Source: an uncultured Candidatus Saccharibacteria bacterium
GTDB taxonomy: Bacteria > Patescibacteriota > Minisyncoccia > Phycocordibacterales > UBA9973
DNA: 64,000 nt
Direction: 5' to 3'
NCBI GenBank assembly: GCA_964423445.1
Contig: CAYREQ010000001.1
Location: 129,732-193,731, forward strand
Each line of letters begins with the position of its first letter. The stretch's first letter is position 1. Positions 34,910-46,227 of this stretch are shown piece after piece. The notes beneath the pieces were generated by a model. It was not told the DNA's origin and made no database searches. It saw nothing but the letters and a program-made list of their open reading frames with translations. A program made the position numbers and the translations under genes.

Positions 34910-36076
34910 TTAGAATCCTTCAGATAATCTTCGGGAATCTTTTTGATACCTAGCAGCCCGATGTCCGCCAGATTGTGCGTAGTGGTCGTAATCTTCGTGA
35001 TCAGAAACCGTTTCGGTTGGTTTCGTGACCACAGAACTTACTACCTCTACTGTCGGCGGCGCGATGCTGACTGGAATCGTATCTTTAGAAGAAAATTTAT
35101 CCTCCGTTAGATTGAGGATGTGTTTTCCTCGGCATTCCTCGTCGGAAACGACCGGTTTGTCTTCGATGAAAACAAACCCTTTGTATGTGTCCCCCGAGTG
35201 AACCGGATTCATGCAGGCCTGAAGGGTCTGCAAGACTTCTTCTGTCCCATCCGGAAATCGATATCGGGCTTGATAAGCTCGAATACCGGGCTCCGGAATA
35301 CGACGAGGCTTCATGGTGGTACCCAAGTAGCCGACCAACCCTTCACCAGAGATAGTCCCGACTTGGATCGGTCCGATACGCCGGATGTCAAAGGTGAACC
35401 CTTCGAGATTAGGATTTCTTTCTCTGTAGAGAGAGCTCGCCCTCTGGTCGAAAAATTTTTCCAGTCTTCTGGTCTCGACCGGTTCGATGCCGCCAGCAAC
35501 ATAAGGCTTGCCTGATGTTATCGGATCAAGTCTGAGCTCGCGATCTTCCCAGCTCTCTTCTTCGTCTTCGTCACTAAAGTCGGGATGCCAATTTCTCGGA
35601 TGCGAGAAAGAAAGCAAAGCTCTCCAGATAAGAAAAACGAGGAATAGTGCGATGACGATGTACGGCGCCAACCAGCCGTAGTCCTTCCACAACATTGCTG
35701 TCGTGTAATTTTCCGGACCGGCTGGAAGTGTCGTAACCAATGGTGGTTTACCCTTCAACGCCGGCTCCGTGGATTCGGTGGAAGCTGTGGGTTCTGTCGT
35801 GGGTGTATTGTATGCCTTCGCATACTCACGCCCCCAGATACCGCGAGTGTCCCCGACTTCGAGTCGGTCGATCGTACCGTCCGGAAGACGGTAACTATCG
35901 CCGGCTTTCATTCGCTTGAAATCGACGTTCGGGTTTAACTTCACGACCTTCGCCATGAAGTTTCCAAAGTCTCTGTGCGACATGATTCCGAAATACAAAT
36001 TTGCCGATACCGGTGTGGTAGCTGTTAACGTTAACAGCATCACCAGTACAAAAATACTAACGAATGTTTTTTTCAT
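34910..36076 (-). CDS. hypothetical single-pass membrane protein (signal peptide, Pro/Thr-rich extracellular stalk, TM, ~230-aa cytoplasmic domain)
   Basis: 388 aa. MKKTFVSIFVLVMLLTLTATTPVSA signal peptide, TPTTEPTASTESTEP linker and a central transmembrane helix WLAPYIVIALFLVFLIW. The coding sequence is visibly GC-rich relative to the rest of the window. Confidence 0.65.
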   Translation of the reverse strand: MKKTFVSIFVLVMLLTLTATTPVSANLYFGIMSHRDFGNFMAKVVKLNPNVDFKRMKAGDSYRLPDGTIDRLEVGDTRGIWGREYAKAYNTPTTEPTASTESTEPALKGKPPLVTTLPAGPENYTTAMLWKDYGWLAPYIVIALFLVFLIWRALLSFSHPRNWHPDFSDEDEEESWEDRELRLDPITSGKPYVAGGIEPVETRRLEKFFDQRASSLYRERNPNLEGFTFDIRRIGPIQVGTISGEGLVGYLGTTMKPRRIPEPGIRAYQARYRFPDGTEEVLQTLQACMNPVHSGDTYKGFVFIEDKPVVSDEECRGKHILNLTEDKFSSKDTIPVSIAPPTVEVVSSVVTKPTETVSDHEDYDHYAQSGGHRAARYQKDSRRLSEGF

Positions 36077-36152
36077 TTCTTTCCTTTCCTATTCTTTTTT
36101 CGAAAAACTTCAGAAATTTAAATGAGCGAAAAAACACGCCTTCATTAAATCA

Positions 36153-36212
36153 TCTACCTAATAGTATAGCATATTATTACCCATTTGTCAAGGTAAATAA
36201 CCTTATTTTATA
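36153..36212 (-). promoter_or_regulatory. consensus sigma70 promoter, copy B of a 60-nt repeat
   Basis: TTGACA, 17 nt, TATACT on the minus strand. The -35 is at 36186-36191 and the -10 at 36163-36168. It drives the 388-aa gene. Confidence 0.65.
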
Positions 36213-36267
36213 TAGCTATATTCGTTTTATTGGAATTTTTTATTAAAAATGTTATATTGCCTCGATA

Positions 36268-36334
36268 GGCCCTATCGTCCCTCGGCCATAGCCAGTAGGC
36301 TCTGTCCTACGGGCGAGGCTAACGGTTAGGACAT
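36268..36334 (+). repeat. 27-nt copy of the tRNA-Glu 5' end, split by a 40-nt insert with CCTCG/CGAGG inverted termini
   Basis: Positions 36268-36279 plus 36320-36334 reproduce tRNA-Glu nt 1-27 exactly. The insert 36280-36319 is cctcggccatagccagtaggctctgtcctacgggcgaggc. Confidence 0.7.
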
Positions 36335-36337
36335 TTT

Positions 36338-36592
36338 ATGCATACAGTTTATGTATTAAAAAGTTTAGTAGATAATAATTTATACATAGGGTGTACTTCT
36401 GATTTAAAAAGTAGGCTGAAGTATCACAACGAAGGTAAAGTAAAATCTACAAAGCATCGTAGGCCTTTAGAATTATTATATAAAGAAAATTATGATAACA
36501 TCTATGAGGCTTTCAAAGTAGAAAGATATTATAAAAGTGCAAAAGGAAAACGTGATTTAAAAAATAAAATGGCCCTATCGTCTAACGGTTAG
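36338..36592 (+). CDS. GIY-YIG nuclease family protein (stand-alone, YhbQ-like)
   Basis: YVLKS...NLYIGCTSDLKSRLKYHNEG GIY-YIG motif, followed by conserved R/E/N positions. 84 aa. The last 22 nt overlap the 5' end of tRNA-Glu. Confidence 0.75.
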   Translation: MHTVYVLKSLVDNNLYIGCTSDLKSRLKYHNEGKVKSTKHRRPLELLYKENYDNIYEAFKVERYYKSAKGKRDLKNKMALSSNG

Positions 36593-36642
36593 GACATCGC
36601 CTTCTCAAGGCGGTAATCAGGGTTCGATTCCCTGTAGGGTCA
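36571..36642 (+). tRNA. tRNA-Glu (anticodon CTC)
   Basis: GGCCCTATCGTCTAACGGTTAGGACATCGCCTTCTCAAGGCGGTAATCAGGGTTCGATTCCCTGTAGGGTCA. Glu-type D-loop, anticodon loop TTCTCAA, TTCGATTCC T-loop. Confidence 0.8.
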
Positions 36643-36656
36643 CAAAGCACTAATAA

Positions 36657-36687
36657 AAAAAGAGCCCACTACTGGGCTCTTTTTTGT
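36657..36687. terminator. bidirectional Rho-independent terminator (nested palindrome)
   Basis: AAAAAGAGCCCACTACTGGGCTCTTTTTT, enclosed by CACAAAGCAC...GTGCTTTGTG. It serves tRNA-Glu on the plus strand and the minus-strand small-protein operon. Confidence 0.7.
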
Positions 36688-36812
36688 GCTTTGTGAAGAC
36701 GGAAGCATAATTTCACAGTAGTGAAATAGCTGAGTCCGGGTCTGGAAAATTTTCTTTTGACGAAAAGAAAATTATTGTGGACCACGTAAATTTTTGTACG
36801 CAAAGCGTTCAA

Positions 36813-37001
36813 TTATTTCTCCAGTTCCTCTTGAGTTTCTTTCTTAGCTTCCATCTTATAAGTTTCAAGAAGCGTAATAAGTCCACAGATTATTAGAAAA
36901 ACAACCAGATAAGTAATCCAAGAACTTATACCTTTAAATGTACGTCCAGCCAACACTCCAACCCCGAGACTGAACATAATGTAACCTAAATATTTTTGCA
37001 T
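36813..37001 (-). CDS. hypothetical small membrane protein (2 TM)
   Basis: 62 aa, two hydrophobic helices. Last gene of the six-gene minus-strand operon. Confidence 0.45.
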   Translation of the reverse strand: MQKYLGYIMFSLGVGVLAGRTFKGISSWITYLVVFLIICGLITLLETYKMEAKKETQEELEK

Positions 37002-37002
37002 A

Positions 37003-37704
37003 TTATTTTTCTTTATTTAAATCAGAGTATTCTTCTATTATGTTATTAGCATCTGTTAACTTTTCAAAAAAGTTAGTGCATTGCATGGGAACATTTTGGA
37101 TGGAAGTAATTTTTGCTTTCCTATCTAAGGTTTCTTGAGAACAATCTATGCTTTCGTAATCATAATCATATAAACATGACGCTCTTGGACTCACTGGAGT
37201 ATATGTCAAACAATTATCATAATCCGCTTTTACTTTTCCTTTTAATAAATTACAGCTTCTAAGTTCATCTTTGTAGTTTTTATCAATCGTTGGTTGGATA
37301 CACGTTTTAAATTTGGCTTTTAAATCATCTAGGCTTGAAATAGCTTGGTCGTATTTTTGTTTTAATTGTTCCTTTTGTAAATTTTCTTGTTTCGTTTGTA
37401 TTAAATAATAAATACCAGTTACTAAAGCAATAACTATAGCTAGAGTTAATAATGCTTTAATAACTTTTTTTCTAGGAGGTATGATATTTGAAATTTTGTG
37501 CTTATTTATACTATCTTCAAATTTTATATTGTTATTATGCCGCCATCCTATTGTGTAAAATATTAGTACCGCGGGAATTAAAATAGAGAGAAATGTAGCA
37601 AAACTTGAGTAATCTGACTGGTCCAAAGAAGCAAAAAATCCAATTATTCCAAAAATCCATATAGATATCAATTGACCTCTTGTAATTTTATAAATGTTTT
37701 TCAT
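37003..37704 (-). CDS. hypothetical membrane protein with Cys-rich C-terminal domain
   Basis: 233 aa. Three N-terminal transmembrane helices, a coiled-coil segment, then 8 Cys in about 90 aa (CIQPT...CNLL...CLTY...CLYDYDYESIDC...CTNF). Confidence 0.5.
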   Translation of the reverse strand: MKNIYKITRGQLISIWIFGIIGFFASLDQSDYSSFATFLSILIPAVLIFYTIGWRHNNNIKFEDSINKHKISNIIPPRKKVIKALLTLAIVIALVTGIYYLIQTKQENLQKEQLKQKYDQAISSLDDLKAKFKTCIQPTIDKNYKDELRSCNLLKGKVKADYDNCLTYTPVSPRASCLYDYDYESIDCSQETLDRKAKITSIQNVPMQCTNFFEKLTDANNIIEEYSDLNKEK

Positions 37705-37707
37705 AAA

Positions 37708-38121
37708 TTATTGATTATTTTTAATTCTAAATTCTAACCAACTATCAGAACACTCTTTCAAGGATTTAAGTACTGTTTCTTTGAGTTCTTGATTTTCTAA
37801 CTTCATATCTAAGCTTTTTTTCATTCTCTGTAAAGCCTCTTCATCTGAAATTTTATCACACGATTCAACCTTGCCATTTGATATTTTTGTAAAATAACCT
37901 ATTAAATATGCCCCCATGGTTTCCCTTATATTTTCAGCCATTATTTTATCGCCAGAATCAAAGAAGTATTTTGTAATTATATTTAATGCTTCTTCTAGCT
38001 TATTAACTGGATGTGGTAAAAAAGATTCTGGAACTATTACAAAGACACGACTCATTTTATCTGCAATTTCTTGATAATTCTGCCAATCTTTAAAAATTTT
38101 CTCAGCTTCTTTAAATTCCAT
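37708..38121 (-). CDS. hypothetical cytoplasmic protein
   Basis: 137 aa, no transmembrane helix. The reading frame is tightly packed within the operon. Confidence 0.45.
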   Translation of the reverse strand: MEFKEAEKIFKDWQNYQEIADKMSRVFVIVPESFLPHPVNKLEEALNIITKYFFDSGDKIMAENIRETMGAYLIGYFTKISNGKVESCDKISDEEALQRMKKSLDMKLENQELKETVLKSLKECSDSWLEFRIKNNQ

Positions 38122-38126
38122 ATATT

Positions 38127-38339
38127 TTATTTATTTAAACCTTTTGCCCTAATGCATAGATTATAAAATACTTCTATACCGTCACGCTCTAAATTAGGAT
38201 TTTCCTTTATAATATTACTAATTTTCCGACTACATGACGAATAAATTTTAGATACCCTAATTTCATACCAATAAAAAACAAAACCTAAAATCACCAAGGC
38301 AATTAAAATTATATATTTATATTCTTTAAGTTTTTGCAT
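38127..38339 (-). CDS. hypothetical small membrane protein (1 TM)
   Basis: 70 aa with an N-terminal transmembrane helix. The 6-nt gap to the upstream gene suggests translational coupling. Confidence 0.4.
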   Translation of the reverse strand: MQKLKEYKYIILIALVILGFVFYWYEIRVSKIYSSCSRKISNIIKENPNLERDGIEVFYNLCIRAKGLNK

Positions 38340-38345
38340 AAAAAA

Positions 38346-38765
38346 TTAACGTGTATTGTAATGTGCATCTGTTACTGAAACAAGGTAGAAAATCCTTTTA
38401 AGTGTATAAAAGAAAATTCTTCCCTTATCTGTATCGATGAATAATTCCCTGACTTCTACGTCATCATGCAATCCTTTATACAGCTTTAAGTAATCACCCT
38501 TAGGAATAATTGAAGAAGATTTAAAATTTCCCAAATCTGTATCCTCAAAAATTCCACAGCCAACTTTTTTAATTAATCTTAATGCTTTTAATGCTCTTTT
38601 TTTCTCTAGGTTGTCTATTCCACATTCTTTTTCATTGTATTTTGCAAATGAAATTAAAAAAGGTGATGACTCAGGGTCATCCTCTTGTTGAGAAAGTTGA
38701 GCAATTTGTTCAGGAATTACTGAATCATTTAATGGCAACTCACTTGCTCCTTCTGGAATAGACAT
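38346..38765 (-). CDS. hypothetical protein, candidate toxin partner of the Panacea-domain protein
   Basis: 139 aa. The C-terminal beta-rich segment GRIFFYTLKRIFYLVSVTDAHY is loosely RelE/ParE-like. It lies 10 nt downstream of the Panacea gene. Confidence 0.4.
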   Translation of the reverse strand: MSIPEGASELPLNDSVIPEQIAQLSQQEDDPESSPFLISFAKYNEKECGIDNLEKKRALKALRLIKKVGCGIFEDTDLGNFKSSSIIPKGDYLKLYKGLHDDVEVRELFIDTDKGRIFFYTLKRIFYLVSVTDAHYNTR

Positions 38766-38775
38766 AGATTCAGAC

Positions 38776-39267
38776 CTAGGCTTTTAATTCCTTAAGCTTA
38801 GAGGAATAAAATTCTTTCATGGATTCCAAAGTTATCTCATTTTCAGAAATTTCATCAACTGAAAGTCCTTCTCTTGCGTCTTGCCAAGGAGATTCTGAAT
38901 GGGTAAGTGCTTCAAGATAAGAAGAATCGTATTTACCATAAACATCCCACACTTGGTCTAAAATTTTTCTGTCTTCCTCAGTTATTAAATTAATAAGGGC
39001 TGAGTCAGGCTCTTTTTTTATTGCATTGAAACTAAATTCTTTATATCTATCGTATAAGCTTTTTATTGCAGGTCCATGAACCCATGCTTCAATTTTTTCA
39101 TCAAAAATCGGACGTTTATTTATGACCAAAGACCATGCTTGAGCATAGTAAACAAGTTTTTGAATTTTCTTATTTGTAATAACCTTTCTGGGAGATGATA
39201 GGTTAGACTTTTGAATGAAGAACTCTGCTATTGAGCTAGCAGGGGTCTTTACTGCTAATTTATTCAT
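38776..39267 (-). CDS. Panacea-domain (DUF4065, SocA-like) protein, putative antitoxin
   Basis: KIQKLVYYAQAWSLVINKRPIFDEKIEAWVHGPAIKSLYDRY matches the Panacea consensus (KLxYYAQ..W....G.P.F.E.IEAW..GPV...LY). Confidence 0.6.
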   Translation of the reverse strand: MNKLAVKTPASSIAEFFIQKSNLSSPRKVITNKKIQKLVYYAQAWSLVINKRPIFDEKIEAWVHGPAIKSLYDRYKEFSFNAIKKEPDSALINLITEEDRKILDQVWDVYGKYDSSYLEALTHSESPWQDAREGLSVDEISENEITLESMKEFYSSKLKELKA

Positions 39268-39391
39268 ATGATAACTATATCATGTTTTCTATAAAGTTGT
39301 CTACAAACTTCCAATTCCAATGGGTAGTGTGATTTAGGACATATATTTAGGCTTTTTAAGCATATTCTTTTGATGCTATAATACGCTCACA

Positions 39392-40081
39392 ATGAAATTA
39401 ATTATTTTATCTGCTGGAAAAGGTCTACGTTTTTTACCAATCACAAACACCATACCAAAAGGCATGGTATCTATTTTAAATGAGCCATTATTAAAGCATG
39501 TAGTAGAGCCATATCTAAAAAATGTGACTGATATTATTTTTGTAGTAAACGATGGACTCGGGATAAAAATAAAAGATTATTTTGGAGAAAAATACAAAGG
39601 GCATAAAGTGTTTTATAAAATACAAAAAGAACAAAAAGGTACGATGGATGCCCTACTCACTTGCAGAGATTTGATAAAAGAAGACGAATTATTTTGTGTA
39701 TCAAATGCGGACGACTTATTAAAAGAAATTGATATAAAAAATGCTATCTTGCAAAATTCTATCGGCGCAGGTATTTCTAAAAAAATAATGCCGAAAAATT
39801 ATCTAGGGGTAGAGGTGGAAAATGATTTGGTAAAAAGTTTTATAAGACACGAAGATAATATAGAAAAGATTAAAGACAATTATTGTAATGGATTTTTTAT
39901 ACTTGATAAGAGGGTTTTTGATTTTGAGCCTGTAGCTACCCTAGATGGAGAGCTCGGCCTGCCACACACACTCTTTGCAAATTTAAGTATATATCCCCTA
40001 AAAATGTTTACTTTTGATTCTTGGGAGACAGTAAATAGACCAGAAGACATAGCAAATGCCGAGAATTTTCTCAAAAATTGA
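39392..40081 (+). CDS. sugar-phosphate nucleotidyltransferase (NTP_transferase family)
   Basis: LSAGKGLRFLPITNTIPKGMVSILNEPLL N-terminal pyrophosphorylase motif. Confidence 0.7.
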   Translation: MKLIILSAGKGLRFLPITNTIPKGMVSILNEPLLKHVVEPYLKNVTDIIFVVNDGLGIKIKDYFGEKYKGHKVFYKIQKEQKGTMDALLTCRDLIKEDELFCVSNADDLLKEIDIKNAILQNSIGAGISKKIMPKNYLGVEVENDLVKSFIRHEDNIEKIKDNYCNGFFILDKRVFDFEPVATLDGELGLPHTLFANLSIYPLKMFTFDSWETVNRPEDIANAENFLKN

Positions 40082-40112
40082 AAAAGCACAGACTAAATGT
40101 TAATCTTGATAG

Positions 40113-40862
40113 ATGGACGATGTTCAAATCATTATTTTAGCTGCTGGAAAAAGTAAACGCATGGGTGGAGATAACCCAAAAGCATTGGCCATGTTTCATG
40201 GTCGTCCATTTTTGCGTCATATACTAGACACTATCAGTAGTCTAAATTTAAATATAAAACCTGTAATTGTAGTCGGTCATAAAAAGGAACAGATAATAGA
40301 AGCTCTCGGTAACGAATATAAATATGCAGAACAAAATGAACAATTGGGCACAGGGCATGCAGTAAAATGTGCTAAAGATTTTATGGATAAAGAACATAAA
40401 ATTATTTTAGTTATCTCTACTGACCAGCCTACCCTATCAAAAGAAACCATCCAAAATCTCATTTCTAAACATAAAGAAAAATCTGCCACCATTTCCCTCG
40501 CCACTGTCACCGTACCTGATTTTGAAGAATGGAGATCTGGCATGAGGCACTTTGGTAGAATAATAAGAAATGAGAATGAAAAGATTACAGACATCATAGA
40601 ATTTAAAGACGCGAATGAAAAAGAAAAATTGGTAAAAGAATTAAACCCAGCTATATATGCTTTTAATGCGGATTGGCTCTGGGAAAATATAGACAAACTA
40701 AGAAATGAAAATGCTCAAAATGAGTACTATTTGACTGACCTTATAAAGATAGCTTTTGAAGAAAACGAAGACATAGAATCTGTACCTGTATTTAATCTAA
40801 TAGAGGGCTTACAGCCAAACACAAAAGATGAAGTTTCTATGTTAGAAAAAATTGCAGTATAA
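40113..40862 (+). CDS. nucleotidyltransferase (GlmU N-terminal uridylyltransferase-like domain, no acetyltransferase domain)
   Basis: ILAAGKSKRMGGDNPKALAMFHGRPFLRHIL motif. 249 aa. Confidence 0.65.
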   Translation: MDDVQIIILAAGKSKRMGGDNPKALAMFHGRPFLRHILDTISSLNLNIKPVIVVGHKKEQIIEALGNEYKYAEQNEQLGTGHAVKCAKDFMDKEHKIILVISTDQPTLSKETIQNLISKHKEKSATISLATVTVPDFEEWRSGMRHFGRIIRNENEKITDIIEFKDANEKEKLVKELNPAIYAFNADWLWENIDKLRNENAQNEYYLTDLIKIAFEENEDIESVPVFNLIEGLQPNTKDEVSMLEKIAV

Positions 40863-40869
40863 TTGATTT

Positions 40870-42087
40870 ATGCAAAACCCATATCAAAATGCAATGTCTC
40901 AACTAGACAAAGTGACTAAAGTGAAAAACTTTAGTGCTGAATTTATTTCTAAACTAAGACAACCAAATAGAGATATTAGAATTTCTATTCCTGTAAAGAT
41001 GGACGATGGAACACAGAAAATATTTGAAGGATATCGGGTGGAATACAACAATGCTCTCGGCCCATATAAAGGAGGAATACGATATCATCCTGATACTGAA
41101 ATAAATGAAGTGAAAGCCCTCGCCTTTTGGATGGCTATAAAGTGTGCCGTCGCAAATATACCTATGGGTGGAGGAAAGGGTGGCATCACCGTAGACCCCA
41201 AAAAATTATCCAAGGGTGAGCTCGAAAGACTTTCACGCGGATGGGTAGGTAAACTCTCTGATATATTAGGACCACACAAAGACGTGCCTGCCCCAGACGT
41301 AAACACTACGCCAGAAATCATGGCTTGGATGAGTGATGAATTTGAAAAAATAACTGGAGATAAAACCAAAGCGACATTTACTGGTAAACCGATAGAAGCT
41401 GGTGGCTCAGAAGGACGTGGCCCAGCTACGGGCCTCGGTGGATTTTATGTCTTTGACGCTTTGCGTAGTGAATTGGGTTTACCAGAAAAGTGCAATGTGG
41501 TAGTGCAAGGTTTTGGAAATGTCGGCAGTAATGCGGCAGAAATTTTTACCGAACACGGGCACACAGTCGTAGCTATTTCAGACTCCAAGGGTGGAATTTA
41601 TAAAAAAGATGGCATTGATATAAAAAAACTAGGAGAATACAAAAAAAATACAGGTGCTATTTCTGGTTTTGAAGGTAGCACCACTATCACAAATGACGAA
41701 CTACTAGAATTAGAATGTGACGTATTAATACCTGCAGCATTTGAAAACGTAATAACAGATGCTAATGCAGATAAAGTACGCGCTAGGGCTATTTTAGAGC
41801 TTGCCAATGGCCCTATAACTCCCGAAGCAGATGAAATTTTGTTTAAAAAAGGTATTCCTGTAATACCAGATGTTTTAGCAAATTCTGGAGGAGTGACAGT
41901 GTCATATTTTGAATGGGATCAAAATCTCAAAGGAGAACATTGGAGTGAAAAAGAAGTTTTTGATAAATTGCGCCCAATGATGGAAGACGCTGCTAGAAAA
42001 ATTTTAGGAAAAGCAAAAGAAAATAATACCCATCTTCGCATCGGGGCTTTTATCTTGGCTCTTGAAAGAATTCAAGAAAAACTATAA
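40870..42087 (+). CDS. gdhA: Glu/Leu/Phe/Val-family glutamate dehydrogenase
   Basis: KGGIRYHP catalytic Lys motif, GGGKGG and GFGNVG Rossmann motif. Confidence 0.85.
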   Translation: MQNPYQNAMSQLDKVTKVKNFSAEFISKLRQPNRDIRISIPVKMDDGTQKIFEGYRVEYNNALGPYKGGIRYHPDTEINEVKALAFWMAIKCAVANIPMGGGKGGITVDPKKLSKGELERLSRGWVGKLSDILGPHKDVPAPDVNTTPEIMAWMSDEFEKITGDKTKATFTGKPIEAGGSEGRGPATGLGGFYVFDALRSELGLPEKCNVVVQGFGNVGSNAAEIFTEHGHTVVAISDSKGGIYKKDGIDIKKLGEYKKNTGAISGFEGSTTITNDELLELECDVLIPAAFENVITDANADKVRARAILELANGPITPEADEILFKKGIPVIPDVLANSGGVTVSYFEWDQNLKGEHWSEKEVFDKLRPMMEDAARKILGKAKENNTHLRIGAFILALERIQEKL

Positions 42088-42106
42088 GATTACTGAATCG
42101 CGCATT

Positions 42107-42143
42107 TAGCTCAGTGTAGCGACGCCTGTAATACGCTTTTTAA
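42107..42143 (+). other. tRNA-like 5' fragment (pseudo-tRNA remnant) preceding tRNA-Val
   Basis: GCGCATTTAGCTCAGTGTAGCGACGCC resembles the acceptor 5' strand plus D-arm of the adjacent tRNA-Val (GCGCGATTAGCTCAGTGGTAGAGCGACCCC). It lacks the anticodon and T arms. Confidence 0.35.
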
Positions 42144-42156
42144 AAAATAAATATAT

Positions 42157-42229
42157 GCGCGATTAGCTCAGTGGTAGAGCGACCCCTTGACGTGGGGTAG
42201 GCCGGGGGTTCAATCCCCTCATCGCGCAC
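42157..42229 (+). tRNA. tRNA-Val (anticodon GAC)
   Basis: GCGCGATTAGCTCAGTGGTAGAGCGACCCCTTGACGTGGGGTAGGCCGGGGGTTCAATCCCCTCATCGCGCA. Anticodon loop TTGACGT. Confidence 0.8.
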
Positions 42230-42236
42230 AGAATTT

Positions 42237-44537
42237 TTAATCTACACTAGCTTCATATTTTCTCATGGCCTCTTCGGCATGCATATGAAAGAGTAAAGTA
42301 ATCAGGTAAGCACGAGCATCATTGTAATCTTGCCCCATTTTTTCCTCACCATTTATCCAGTGTTTTAAAATTTCTTCATCGAGTTTTATCTCTTTAAATT
42401 TTCCGTCTTTTTCTGGTACACGTATTTTACTGACTTTAAATTTATCAATAAGGATTGTGGCAATTTCAGTATTGGTCAAAAAGTTTACCATAGCAGCAGA
42501 GCCTCCTCCCTTGGAACAAAAAGCTTCATACATCTCAATTCCCGCTCCGCCTACATTTCCTTTCTCTGCCCATTTTTTTCTTATGCCATCTATCACCTTT
42601 GCCCACATTTCTCTATGTGAAGAAAACATGCTCCTGACATTTTTTATCTCCTCTATACCTTTTCTAGCATCTGTAAATAATTCTACCCAATGAGAAGGCA
42701 GTGGCAATTTACTATTTTTTTTATTTTCATGAAATTCTTCTACAGTTTTCTTTTCCACCAAGTCTATCAATTCTTCCAATTGTTTTATTTTATTTAAATC
42801 CAATTCTCCCCTCGTTGCTTTCATTAGATTTTCGTGTACACCCTGACTATCGTGTGTCTTGTAGACCTGAGAAACTGTAGTGTCCTTTAATATGTTATTT
42901 TTTTCAAGCCATTTTATAAAATCAAATTTTTCTGTCTCTTTTTTTTCTGTAGCACCTATCATAGCTGCACGAGTGATGACTGCGCGCAATGCTACAGCGT
43001 ACGTATTCCCACCAAACACTTCAGGGGTTAGGTCTGGTCCTGTAAATTCTAATCTAGCACCCGTGGTAAGCTTTGGAGATTCTCCTTCTTTTGATTTTTC
43101 TAAAAATTTTAAAAATTTTGCAAAGGACACACTGTCTCTAGATCGTACTTCTGAATGCATAGGTGCATATGTACGAGTAATACCAGAAGGTGTTTCTATT
43201 TCTATTTTTCCTGTTGTTCTGTCAAAACTGTTTGCTAAACCTTTCAATAATAATTCTTCTTTTAAGAGCTTGAAATCAGTCTCTGGTGGAATCAACCCTG
43301 GAGCACGACTAGTAGGAATTATATTTCTAAGCACAGAACGTCCAGATAAAATATCTACTACCTCACCTTTACTATTTGGTAAGTGCGTCTTTGCTCCGTG
43401 AATCATGTTTCCTGAGTAATTCAATACATTTACAATCTCAGACCAATATATACCTCCATTTACTGCTCCTTTCATTGCAGATTGGGGTATCATTCCGTCT
43501 TTATGCTGAGGAACACCGACAGATATATGCAAAGCTCTAGCCATCCAAGCATCAAAAAGATATGTTCTAACAAAAATTTCTCCTGGTGAACGAGCTGGGT
43601 ATTTAGGGTCACTAGTGATTCCATGCGTATGAGCAATCTGATTCAAAACTTTTAAAACATCTTGATCTTTACTCAAAATAAAAGATAAGTTTTGCAACAT
43701 CTTTGCTGTATAAGCATTTGTAGCTGCATCGAGATAGCCCAAGCTCTGCTGAGCCTTTGGAGGTAATAATTCGAAGTGTTCAGCTTTTAATGCTGTATAT
43801 GGCTCTTCTTTTAAAGGAACTTTCTGTGCCATCGTATTTGTAAATTCCAATATATAGGCTTCATCTTTGGCTTCTTTAAAAATTTCTTTTTGAATTCTTA
43901 CTAATGAATTTTTGAAATCTTTAAAATTTTCTGCTGGGAGCTCTTCGCTGAGTTCGCGCATATTTAAAAATGCTTCTACGAGTCCTTCTTTGCATAAAGA
44001 AAAAGCTCTTCGTGCAGCTCTTTCTTTTCCTTCTTTTGTATCTATATCATATTCTTGTATACCAAATTCTATTTCTTGGCCCATGAGCATGCCGTGCTCG
44101 GCTGTGTCTTTTAGCCAGTCTTTTATAAAAGCTTGGTCGCGAGGAGAATTATCAAGCAATACGACTTGTATCTCATTTGTCATTGCAGAAGAATCATCTG
44201 GAGAAAGTGGCACCATAGGATACATAGGACTTCCATCAATCTTTACACCGATTGGATCTTTTGTAGTATCTTCTCTTCTTCTAAAAGCGCCTTCGGGAAC
44301 TATGAGAGTATACTCAACATCACCAATACCTAAAGATGGGTAAGGTTTGAATGTCATTGCCCAAGAATTACTGCCATAAGGAGAGACCGTAGCACTTGCC
44401 TCTACTTCACCATACTCTCTTAGCATGTGCTCTAATTCTTCTGGGTTTATGCGTTCACCCTCACCTTTTAAATCCAATTTTGGTTTATGAATTTCTTTTT
44501 CAGTATTTTGAAAGTTTTCCATATTTCCTGGATTCAT
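42237..44537 (-). CDS. large hypothetical protein (766 aa), unassigned
   Basis: A long uninterrupted ORF with host-like composition. No P-loop, HExxH or other catalytic motif recognisable by eye. Confidence 0.55.
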   Translation of the reverse strand: MNPGNMENFQNTEKEIHKPKLDLKGEGERINPEELEHMLREYGEVEASATVSPYGSNSWAMTFKPYPSLGIGDVEYTLIVPEGAFRRREDTTKDPIGVKIDGSPMYPMVPLSPDDSSAMTNEIQVVLLDNSPRDQAFIKDWLKDTAEHGMLMGQEIEFGIQEYDIDTKEGKERAARRAFSLCKEGLVEAFLNMRELSEELPAENFKDFKNSLVRIQKEIFKEAKDEAYILEFTNTMAQKVPLKEEPYTALKAEHFELLPPKAQQSLGYLDAATNAYTAKMLQNLSFILSKDQDVLKVLNQIAHTHGITSDPKYPARSPGEIFVRTYLFDAWMARALHISVGVPQHKDGMIPQSAMKGAVNGGIYWSEIVNVLNYSGNMIHGAKTHLPNSKGEVVDILSGRSVLRNIIPTSRAPGLIPPETDFKLLKEELLLKGLANSFDRTTGKIEIETPSGITRTYAPMHSEVRSRDSVSFAKFLKFLEKSKEGESPKLTTGARLEFTGPDLTPEVFGGNTYAVALRAVITRAAMIGATEKKETEKFDFIKWLEKNNILKDTTVSQVYKTHDSQGVHENLMKATRGELDLNKIKQLEELIDLVEKKTVEEFHENKKNSKLPLPSHWVELFTDARKGIEEIKNVRSMFSSHREMWAKVIDGIRKKWAEKGNVGGAGIEMYEAFCSKGGGSAAMVNFLTNTEIATILIDKFKVSKIRVPEKDGKFKEIKLDEEILKHWINGEEKMGQDYNDARAYLITLLFHMHAEEAMRKYEASVD

Positions 44538-44549
44538 AAAAAAAAATAT

Positions 44550-45035
44550 TTATTGTGTATCTGCTGTAGGTCCGTAAATAGAAGGAACTTTTGCTCCCAT
44601 TGCTCGCAAGTATGTAGATAGCTGGCCTCGGTGATGAATAGCATCAAAGAGAAAGCCCCAAGCCATTCCATATTTTTTATCTTCCCATTTTCCATTTGGA
44701 CCCATGTCTAATACTCCCATGCCATTTTCCCAATCTTCAAGAGAAATATTTTCTACGTTTTTCAAAAGCTCTGTGTATCCTGTATCAAAATTCGAAAGCA
44801 TTTCTGCTCTACTTTTTGCCTCCATAGAATGAGCATTGAAAGCTGGGACTCCGGTCAAAAGTATACCTGATATTGCCTCCCATTGAGCTGAGAGCTGAGC
44901 TGCCAAGTTTCCTGCTTCTCGAGCCTTGTCGTGGACTTTGTGAGAAAATTGATCTTCTGGTAAAGCTTCGATCGCGTCCCGAAATTTCTTTTGCTCTTCT
45001 TTTAATGTTTTAGTGAAAAATTCTTTTGTATTCAT
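44550..45035 (-). CDS. DinB/YfiT-like superfamily protein
   Basis: 161 aa four-helix-bundle pattern with the HHRGQLSTYLR motif. Confidence 0.6.
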   Translation of the reverse strand: MNTKEFFTKTLKEEQKKFRDAIEALPEDQFSHKVHDKAREAGNLAAQLSAQWEAISGILLTGVPAFNAHSMEAKSRAEMLSNFDTGYTELLKNVENISLEDWENGMGVLDMGPNGKWEDKKYGMAWGFLFDAIHHRGQLSTYLRAMGAKVPSIYGPTADTQ

Positions 45036-45132
45036 AAATTTTTATTTTTATTAATTAATATGTTCACATTATAGCCTACTCGAAAAATTGTCACAAATAG
45101 TATATAATCCACAAAACAAATAAGAAAATAAG

Positions 45133-46227
45133 ATGAAAATATTAAGCATAGAATCATCCTGTGACGATACAGGAATTACAATAATGGAAATGACAGGTGG
45201 CTACGGCAAAGCTTCTTTTAAAATACTTGCCGATGCTTCAAATTCACAAATACCAAAACATATACCTTTTGGTGGTGTCTACCCTGCTTTAGCAAAAAAA
45301 GAACACGCAAAAAACTTACCAATTTTATTTAAAGAAGTAATGCTCGAATCAAAACTAGCTAAAAAAGAAAAGCCAGTAGATGCCGTGGCTGTGACTTATG
45401 GACCGGGCTTGGAAATGTGTCTCTGGGAAGGAATTACTTTTGCAAAAGATTTGGCAAAGAAATGGAATGTACCTCTAATACCTACAAATCATATGGAGGG
45501 TCACATATTTTCTGTTTTTGGTAAAAAAAATATCAAAACTAATAAAGGTAAATTTAGTGTAGAAAAAGTAAAGACACCAATGCTATCAATCCTGGTATCT
45601 GGTGGGCACACTCAGCTCATAGTCAGTCGCAAGTGGATGGAGTATGAAATCATCGGTGAGACACTAGATGATGCTGTAGGTGAAGCATATGACAAAGTAG
45701 CCCGAATGCTCGGATTAAATTACCCTGGAGGTCCACAAATTTCTAGACTAGCCGAAGAAATGCGAGCAAAAGAAATAAAACCAAATCTTCCAAAAGAACT
45801 TCCTCGCCCAATGATGCATAGCAAAGATTTTAAATTTTCTTATTCAGGACTCAAGACTGCAGTGCTATATCTGATTCGGGACCTTGGAGGTTTAGAAAAA
45901 TTAAATAAAAAAATGATAAGCCAGATAGCTTTAGAATTTGAAAATGCTGCTATCGAGCCGATAATTTATAAGACAGCGAAAGCTATAGAAAAATACAATA
46001 TCAAAACTATCGCTGTGGGTGGTGGAGTCGCCTGTAATATTCATCTACAAAGAGAATTGAAAAAATTAGCAAAAATATACAAAGTAAAATTGCTCCTTCC
46101 TCAAAAAGAACTGACTGGAGACAATTCGCTCATGATTGGTATTGCTGGCTATCTACAATATATAAAAAATAAAAAGAAAGTACCAAAAATAGATACAGTC
46201 AGGGCGACTGGCACGCTAAAACTTTAA
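45133..46227 (+). CDS. tsaD: tRNA N6-adenosine threonylcarbamoyltransferase TsaD
   Basis: ILSIESSCDDTGI N-terminus, HMEGHIF metal-binding motif and Kae1/TsaD-family motifs throughout. Confidence 0.85.
   Translation: MKILSIESSCDDTGITIMEMTGGYGKASFKILADASNSQIPKHIPFGGVYPALAKKEHAKNLPILFKEVMLESKLAKKEKPVDAVAVTYGPGLEMCLWEGITFAKDLAKKWNVPLIPTNHMEGHIFSVFGKKNIKTNKGKFSVEKVKTPMLSILVSGGHTQLIVSRKWMEYEIIGETLDDAVGEAYDKVARMLGLNYPGGPQISRLAEEMRAKEIKPNLPKELPRPMMHSKDFKFSYSGLKTAVLYLIRDLGGLEKLNKKMISQIALEFENAAIEPIIYKTAKAIEKYNIKTIAVGGGVACNIHLQRELKKLAKIYKVKLLLPQKELTGDNSLMIGIAGYLQYIKNKKKVPKIDTVRATGTLKL

Follow-up and report, generated by a model that had tools for sequence, protein, structure and literature searches.

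A stand-alone Panacea antitoxin and a partner with a predicted RelE fold probably form a two-gene module in a Patescibacteria genome

Patescibacteria are thought to have reduced genomes, and to our knowledge their defence systems are poorly known. In a stretch of 64,000 nucleotides (nt) from an uncultured Candidatus Saccharibacteria bacterium (contig CAYREQ010000001.1, positions 129,732 to 193,731; hereafter the window), six tightly packed genes lie on the minus strand between a transfer RNA gene, tRNA-Glu, and a pair of nucleotidyltransferase-like genes. The original prediction for this locus was an accessory toxin-antitoxin or defence cassette of six genes with membrane components, headed by a Panacea (DUF4065) antitoxin and a candidate toxin. 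Do the six genes form one system, or does a smaller module stand beside unrelated genes? We found that the second answer is the probable one. Taking the Panacea domain, the conserved pairing and the predicted fold together, genes 1 and 2 appear to constitute a PanA-PanT module (PanA, the Panacea antitoxin; PanT, its partner toxin) of type II, with a RelE-fold toxin that likely cuts messenger RNA (mRNA), while genes 3-6 would be unrelated passengers. The six open reading frames (ORFs) have the predicted positions and lengths (in amino acids, aa), as follows.

39267-38776, minus strand: gene 1 (PanA), 163 aa
38765-38346, minus strand: gene 2 (putative PanT), 139 aa
38339-38127, minus strand: gene 3, an ORF of 70 aa with one transmembrane (TM) helix, adjacent passenger
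38121-37708, minus strand: gene 4, a soluble protein of 137 aa from a small orphan family, adjacent passenger
37704-37003, minus strand: gene 5, a membrane protein of 233 aa with two or three TM segments, a coiled stretch and a C-terminal cysteine domain, adjacent passenger
37001-36813, minus strand: gene 6, an ORF of 62 aa with one or two TM helices, adjacent passenger

The intergenic gaps from gene 1 to gene 6 measure 10, 6, 5, 3 and 1 nt, and the first of these agrees with the spacing originally noted between genes 1 and 2.

By its sequence, gene 1 is clearly a stand-alone Panacea/DUF4065 protein. The original assignment, made from a consensus match, is borne out by the profile of the family (PF13274, SocA_Panacea), which gene 1 matches with E = 1.5e-22 and 81 bits (cutoff 25.7) over the full model (positions 1-113 of 113). 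It also matches phrog_1281 in PHROGs with 1e-43. The match to the NCBIfam SocA model is 52 bits, which is under the equivalog cutoff of 190. Neither a helix-turn-helix, a zinc-binding nor a PAD1 domain was found in gene 1, so that its Panacea domain stands alone and is flanked only by short N- and C-terminal stretches. A W-x-H-G-P motif occupies residues 62-66, and W62, H64, G65 and P66 are invariant in the nine PanA proteins that partner relatives of gene 2. The GPV motif of Panacea is reported to be critical for neutralisation (PMC8832971), and gene 1 carries HGPA where its relatives carry HGPV. The alignment of the partner PanAs also delimits a conserved C-terminal tail (residues 130-163) in which S141, I145 and Y154 are invariant. 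Related Panacea proteins, with up to ~42% identity, were found in 83 phage records. The best of these phage relatives is paired with an unrelated protein of 291 aa, which fits the partner swapping reported for the Panacea domain (PMC8832971, PMC10440598).

The pairing of genes 1 and 2 is conserved beyond the window. In all ten sampled loci of the family, the window included, the gene-2 relative is preceded at 1-12 nt, or overlapped, by a Panacea gene of 161-181 aa. The pairing was checked in L001-L007 and L016-L022 as well as in the window, spanning toxin identities of 24-66%.

L001/L002: gene-2 relative with 64% identity, Panacea gene upstream
L003-L006: gene-2 relative with 66% identity, Panacea gene upstream
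L007: gene-2 relative with 59% identity, Panacea gene upstream
L016/L017: gene-2 relative with 35% identity, Panacea gene upstream
L018: gene-2 relative with 33% identity, Panacea gene upstream
L019: gene-2 relative with 24% identity, upstream ORF cut by the contig end and still Panacea
L020/L021: gene-2 relative with 28% identity, Panacea gene upstream
L022: gene-2 relative with 28% identity, Panacea gene upstream

Gene 1 shares 42-81% identity with the partner PanAs, which form a lineage of their own, so that genes 1 and 2 have diverged together. Another 139-aa ORF in L004 and L006 was considered as a second gene-2 paralogue and rejected, since tblastn gave one gene-2 match per locus. The two proteins also occur as a single polypeptide. 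P0137 (NGX32563.1), a protein of 306 aa encoded in a Candidatus Anoxychlamydiales metagenome-assembled genome (L014, 4001-4921; L015, 2102-3022), is composed of a complete PanA and a complete gene-2-type toxin fused head-to-tail, and it keeps both Ile-Pro motifs of the toxin extension described below. It is possibly a self-inhibited single-chain toxin-antitoxin protein. The view that gene 2 is the partner toxin of gene 1 is thus supported by the pairing in ten of ten loci and by one fusion protein.

The genes that follow the pair differ among loci. In L001 they are zinc-ribbon membrane proteins and a large serine recombinase; in L003-L007, a convergent smpB; in L016, a 76-aa ORF, a DUF6804 gene, an NfeD/S49 peptidase gene and an integrase gene; and in L020, unknown ORFs and a serine recombinase. 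The pair is few genes away from a large serine recombinase (L001, 10926-12488; L020, 3145-4600) or a tyrosine integrase (L016, 6851-7840). These recombinase and integrase neighbours suggest that Panacea-toxin pairs of this type are often carried on integrative elements. In L003-L007, by contrast, the pair has a fixed place beside smpB and ftsH in two species. The pair is an accessory module: it is missing at the syntenic site in relatives and is found in several different neighbourhoods elsewhere.

Gene 2 appears to represent a new toxin sequence family with respect to Pfam, NCBIfam, PHROG and PADLOC, the published PanT clusters being compared by their listed descriptions and not by sequences. 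Searches of Pfam, NCBIfam, PADLOC and PHROGs with gene 2 gave no significant match. A word-indexed search detected only eight close homologues, all of ~139 aa and one of them named Candidatus Paceibacterota. A profile search of a representative library of 1.84 billion proteins detected 262 clusters at E <= 1e-3, with 117 at E <= 1e-10, and nearly all of their members have 135-170 aa. The family is mainly from metagenomic Patescibacteria, with one Chlamydiae member. No relatives of gene 2 were found in viral contigs, or in annotated phages and plasmids when three different members were queried, and the gene-2 model had no significant match in the viral structure library.

An alignment of 108 family members divides gene 2 into two parts. 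Residues 1-35 form an N-terminal extension, which is acidic in the window copy and contains two conserved Ile-Pro motifs (I3-P4 and I17-P18) and E32. Residues 36-139 form a basic core, with a mean net charge of +5 across the family and with S39, Y43, C48, G69, Y92, E107, R116, F118 and H135 as its conserved residues. H135 (108/108) and Y92 are invariant, R116 is present in 105 and E107 in 102 of the 108 sequences, C48 is nearly invariant, and conservation reaches at least 90% for F118, S39 and Y43.

The fold of gene 2 was predicted with AlphaFold. The model made from the eight close homologues was unusable (predicted local distance difference test score, pLDDT, 42), and a usable one needed the family as enlarged by the profile search. 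With the 108-sequence alignment, the pLDDT is 88.4 and the predicted template modelling score 0.75, and residues 31-139 are above 90. In the modelled chain a strand is followed by one long and one short helix, next by a short strand with a helix, and then by three antiparallel strands. It has the hallmark of the RelE/ParE fold, namely an N-terminal strand, two helices and a three-stranded antiparallel sheet; this sheet corresponds to the C-terminal segment that had been judged beta-rich by eye. In the structural comparison, the scores are 7.4 for YoeB and RelE3, 7.3 for an archaeal RelE and HigB, 7.0 for YafQ and 6.8 for HP0894. Several further RelE and HigB chains were matched as well, and ParE proteins score 5.0-5.4. 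After these chains comes RNase Sa (4.0), with barnase at 3.2-3.4. The top matches in Foldseek are the archaeal RelE, HP0894, YafQ, HigB1 and the RelE-like domain of Cami1. Since two methods agree on one superfamily and the model is confident, the assignment of gene 2 to the RelE/ParE fold is well supported as a prediction. On this model, gene 2 is a member of the RelE/ParE superfamily at the fold level only, as a separate sequence family, because it has no significant Pfam, NCBIfam or hhalign match.

The same fold is used by toxins of two kinds, and the conserved residues bear on the choice between them. In the model, R116 starts the middle strand of the C-terminal sheet, E107 is on the strand before it, and H135 is just past the last strand. 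Superfamily members of the ribonuclease (RNase) type have a catalytic Arg at the equivalent strand start (R65 in YoeB, R61 in RelE), and their C-terminal end carries a His or a Tyr (H83/Y84 in YoeB, H92 in HigB, Y87 in RelE). The residues concerned in YoeB are E46, R65, H83 and Y84, and RNase Sa has a Glu/Arg/His set like the one in YoeB. No such set is known from ParE toxins. Because E107, R116 and H135 are conserved at places that match those of the RNase-type members in topology, within the toxin-antitoxin reading we give somewhat better than even chances to a ribosome-dependent mRNA endonuclease of the RelE/YoeB type. That genes 1 and 2 are a PanA-PanT pair whose toxin is a DNA gyrase poison of the ParE type, and not an RNase, seems unlikely to us; the ParE proteins are present in the structural comparison, where they score lower than the RelE and YoeB chains.

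Several points weigh against the reading of gene 2 as a RelE-fold RNase paired with a Panacea antitoxin. The fold is a prediction and not a solved structure, and the Foldseek E-values are modest, the best being 4.7e-3 and none reaching 1e-3. There is no sequence-level tie to any RelE/ParE family: Pfam searches over the 108 aligned members gave single faint matches only (including Gp49 at 0.0066), hhalign of the gene-2 profile with a verified YoeB and with YafQ gave probabilities below 1%, and neither a single-sequence nor a profile search of the Protein Data Bank found anything. R116 falls on the catalytic R65 of YoeB in the only local hhalign alignment, which is not statistically significant, and the mapping of catalytic residues is drawn from this alignment and from topology. 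ParE-type gyrase poisons have the same fold, so that the RNase chemistry is a proposal. As for the pairing, genomic context was sampled for ten of the ~262 clusters of the family. The fusion was seen in one organism only, in two assemblies that are perhaps from the same sample, and for this reason a lost stop codon or an assembly error may be its origin.

Could gene 2 be a catalytically inert RelE-fold protein, either a regulator or a decayed toxin, in a pair that no longer works as a toxin-antitoxin module? Eight of the tested PanTs were non-toxic in Escherichia coli (PMC8832971), and gene 2 has no sequence match to any characterised toxin. Nevertheless, the polar residues are strongly conserved over 108 sequences down to ~25% identity, the window copy retains all of them (H135, Y92, E107 and R116), and both gene 1 and gene 2 are full length relative to their homologues. 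We regard loss of activity as improbable.

Preferring an active toxin, we propose that gene 2 is most likely an endoribonuclease of the RelE/YoeB type that would cut mRNA on the ribosome, with Arg116, His135 and Glu107 as the candidate catalytic residues. PanA would be translated first, from a transcript common to both genes, and most likely neutralises the toxin through direct binding. Indirect support for a growth-arresting toxin that PanA would bind comes from the natural fusion and from the joint divergence of the two genes. Direct binding is proposed because the tested PanAs pull down their toxins and neutralise them without ClpXP or Lon (PMC8832971). A stand-alone Panacea protein can directly contact the disordered N-terminal region of a toxin (PMC10440598). 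The likely contacts in the present pair would be the toxin extension with its two Ile-Pro motifs, the conserved C-terminal tail of PanA, or both.

A different use of the extension would be as a degradation tag or adaptor site, with PanA acting as an adaptor that hands the toxin to ClpXP, as in the type VI SocAB system. SocA is a Panacea protein to which gene 1 has its partial NCBIfam match, the toxin extension is conserved, probably disordered and absent from RelE toxins, and the authors of PMC8832971 note that binding and degradation need not be exclusive. On the other hand, the SocA match is far under the equivalog cutoff (52 against 190 bits), the PanAs tested in that study bind their toxins directly and do without ClpXP or Lon, and a covalent PanA-PanT fusion is easier to reconcile with inhibition by contact than with handing the toxin to a protease. 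Proteolytic delivery is thus rather improbable here, and neutralisation by contact remains our preferred reading. A further idea is that the extension, the stand-alone Panacea protein and the fusion represent a distinct control of RelE-fold toxins, and that the pair is an abortive-infection module in Patescibacteria; this we put forward as speculation that is unlikely to hold.

We then turn to genes 3-6. No tblastn match to any of them was found in the other pair-bearing loci; therefore, the conserved functional unit is the two genes. A recurrence of the cysteine-rich membrane protein and the small TM proteins with Panacea pairs, which the original prediction suggested looking for, was not seen in these loci. 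As had been stated, genes 3-6 have no identifiable family, with no significant match in Pfam, NCBIfam, PADLOC or PHROGs; in PADLOC, none of the six proteins has a match below E = 0.005. Homologues were detected for gene 5 (n=20) and gene 4 (n=5), and none were found for genes 3 and 6. Genes 1, 2, 4 and 5 are taken as real genes because each has protein homologues elsewhere. Genes 3 and 6 are candidate genes by ORF length, tight spacing and a hydrophobic helix.

The gene-5 homologues (13 loci, within L023-L035) are found without genes 1, 2, 3, 4 and 6. Their surroundings include a methyltransferase and a ResIII helicase in L023, and a serine recombinase, Prim-Pol, ParB and DUF4365 in L024, while L026-L035 are ten metagenome loci without the pair. 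In L025 the gene-4 homologue is surrounded by integrase, Lsr2 and TIR genes, and a Panacea pair is absent. Elsewhere, genes 4 and 5 occur alone, in neighbourhoods with many mobile-element and defence genes. A conserved sub-module made up of genes 3-6 was considered and rejected, as these genes do not co-occur with each other.

The reading of the whole block as a single multi-component system for defence or of the toxin-antitoxin kind, with the membrane proteins of genes 3, 5 and 6 as effectors or sensors, draws on gaps of 1-10 nt, one promoter-like site, one terminator, the unusual AT-richness of the whole block and the existence of small TM peptides among known PanT toxins (PMC8832971), but it is largely refuted by the co-occurrence data and very improbable, as genes 3-6 are missing from every other pair locus, where unrelated genes or a convergent smpB directly follow the pair, as the 13 loci with gene-5 homologues and the single locus with a gene-4 homologue contain neither the pair nor the other of these two genes, and as PADLOC gave no matches.

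In related Patescibacteria the genes that follow on the right side of the block (39392-46227) are retained, and none of genes 1-6 is present. These relatives are distant (their flanking gene is 59-67% identical), and synteny is lost at the block. The block is therefore not conserved core, in agreement with the original prediction, and the comparison leaves an insertion undated. The six-gene arrangement is particular to this genome, a local mosaic and not a system. Of the accessory cassette first proposed, the part that stands is genes 1-2 as an accessory module; the unit of six genes with membrane components finds no co-occurrence. Genes 3-6 would be unrelated small accessory genes, mostly for membrane proteins, that landed directly behind the PanA-PanT module and are probably transcribed by read-through from the promoter of that module, without being functional parts of it.

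Some features of gene 5 and its family deserve description. Its protein has six cysteines (135, 151, 165, 177, 188 and 209), and not the eight first counted, and five of the six are invariant in the family. Of the TM segments predicted for genes 5 and 6, only two of three in gene 5 and one of two in gene 6 are strong at a strict hydropathy threshold. The five invariant cysteines lie in the C-terminal domain, which is predicted to be extracellular. The family has a highly conserved N-terminus (MKNIYKITKGQLI) and a motif IPA..FYTIGW, and the C-terminal end differs in a subfamily of longer proteins (271-285 aa). In one source, a protein of this family is wrongly labelled as a succinate dehydrogenase anchor subunit. 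Small DUF6804 proteins are encoded both near a Panacea pair (L016, 4853-5209) and near a gene-5 homologue (L023, 7655-7975), and their recurrence may point to a pool of small accessory genes that these genomes have in common.

The placement of the block between tRNA-Glu and the nucleotidyltransferase genes was confirmed, and the surrounding features are as follows.

36571-36643, plus strand: tRNA-Glu(ctc)
36656-36685, either strand: bidirectional intrinsic terminator with a stem of 13 base pairs and A/T runs on both sides
39303-39274, minus strand: promoter-like site (TAGACA, 18 nt, TG-extended TATAGT), top score of the region with 10/12 matches
From 39392: two nucleotidyltransferase-like genes, the first starting at this position

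The terminator is common to the six-gene block and tRNA-Glu, and was also detected as an inverted repeat. No strong terminator was found between any of the six genes, and their co-transcription is thus plausible from spacing and layout. Promoter-like sites are no more numerous in the region than in shuffled sequence, so that the site before gene 1 is a candidate promoter by virtue of its position. Its -10 element ends 6 nt before the ATG of gene 1 (39265-39279, minus strand, for the two together), and no Shine-Dalgarno sequence is visible upstream of any of the six genes. For these reasons, the mRNA of the antitoxin may be leaderless. An Rfam scan of 36000-39600 gave the tRNA only, with a Thr_leader match at the terminator below threshold.

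In base composition, the six-gene block has 29.8% G+C (GC) against a window mean of 35.3%, which places it in the lowest 1% of windows of the same size; the pair has 32.8% and genes 3-6 have 28.2%. The GC-rich island reported next to the block is real, with 51% GC at 35001-36000 against a mean of 35%. Within this stretch lies an ORF of 388 aa (34910-36076, minus strand) with a signal-peptide-like N-terminus. As its GC content deviates from the 35% background and it has neither a Pfam family nor a relative in any fetched locus, this ORF may be foreign DNA. A 374-aa ORF beside the pair in L007 was ruled out by comparison as a relative of it.

Positions 36269-36334 duplicate the first 28 nt of tRNA-Glu(ctc), interrupted by a GC-rich hairpin insert of 39 nt (CCTCGGCC...GGGCGAGG), and an 84-aa GIY-YIG nuclease ORF (36338-36592) ends within the 5' part of the intact tRNA-Glu. 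The segment 36269-36643 has the appearance of a tRNA gene at which a GIY-YIG element inserted and regenerated the 5' half of the tRNA. Insertion of the six-gene block itself at tRNA-Glu was rejected, since the block has no flanking direct repeat of the tRNA 3' end. No integrase was found in the window region.

Through this analysis, ~262 clusters of a family that is unannotated in the four curated libraries searched receive a predicted fold and a mechanism that experiments can test. It adds a well-supported partner of predicted RelE fold to the Panacea network and a toxin-antitoxin annotation for Patescibacteria. It also shows a locus where tight spacing and a common strand are no sign of a six-gene system: a two-gene module is followed by unrelated small genes.

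Known systems resemble the pair to different degrees. SocA-SocB of Caulobacter (type VI) likewise has an antitoxin with a Panacea domain; gene 1, however, scores 52 bits where the SocA equivalog model demands 190, and while SocB is a replication-inhibiting toxin (PMC8832971), the partner here has a predicted RelE fold. Compared with YefM-YoeB and RelB-RelE, the antitoxin of the window is a globular Panacea protein and not of the Phd/YefM or RelB type, and the pair has no recognisable DNA-binding domain for autoregulation. Its toxin is ~50 residues longer, with the N-terminal extension and an extra strand and helix, and shows no significant sequence similarity. Known anti-phage systems in PADLOC-DB provided neither a component match nor a conserved co-occurring gene set. 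CapRel is a defence protein in which toxin and antitoxin are fused in a single chain (PMC10440598). Unlike CapRel, the window encodes two separate proteins, the fusion was seen in one organism only, and a role in phage defence has no support here; like CapRel, P0137 joins antitoxin and toxin in one polypeptide, and it offers a ready single-chain construct.

The closest counterparts are the PanA-PanT clusters. Predicted RelE/YoeB/HigB/ParE-like PanTs are listed by Kurata et al. (2022) in Dataset S1 as pT15/T14 of Methanobrevibacter, pT31/T28 of Taylorella and pT70/T59 of Haloterrigena (PMC8832971). HHpred matched pT15, pT31 and pT70 with HigB, YoeB, RelE, YafQ and ParE, all three are marked as not tested, and in the main text ParE and mRNA interferases are counted as partners of Panacea (PMC8832971). 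A Panacea protein with a RelE/ParE-fold toxin is therefore already known as a prediction, and because such pairs were predicted and none was tested, the gene-2 family is a candidate with which a Panacea:RelE-fold pair could be tested by experiment for the first time. Like those clusters, the pair in the window has a Panacea antitoxin first, without an extra N-terminal domain, a toxin second and a gap of few nt; it is conserved as two genes across species, it belongs to no conserved operon of more than three genes, given that genes 3-6 are absent from the other pair loci, and its toxin is predicted to have a RelE/ParE-type fold. Unlike them, its toxin family has no Pfam, NCBIfam, PHROG or PADLOC model, its kinship with RelE is visible only by structure prediction, and it has a conserved extension of ~35 residues with two Ile-Pro motifs. 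What is new in comparison is a sizeable unannotated family of putative toxins, its N-terminal extension, its occurrence in Patescibacteria and in one Chlamydiae genome, and its natural fusion with the antitoxin.

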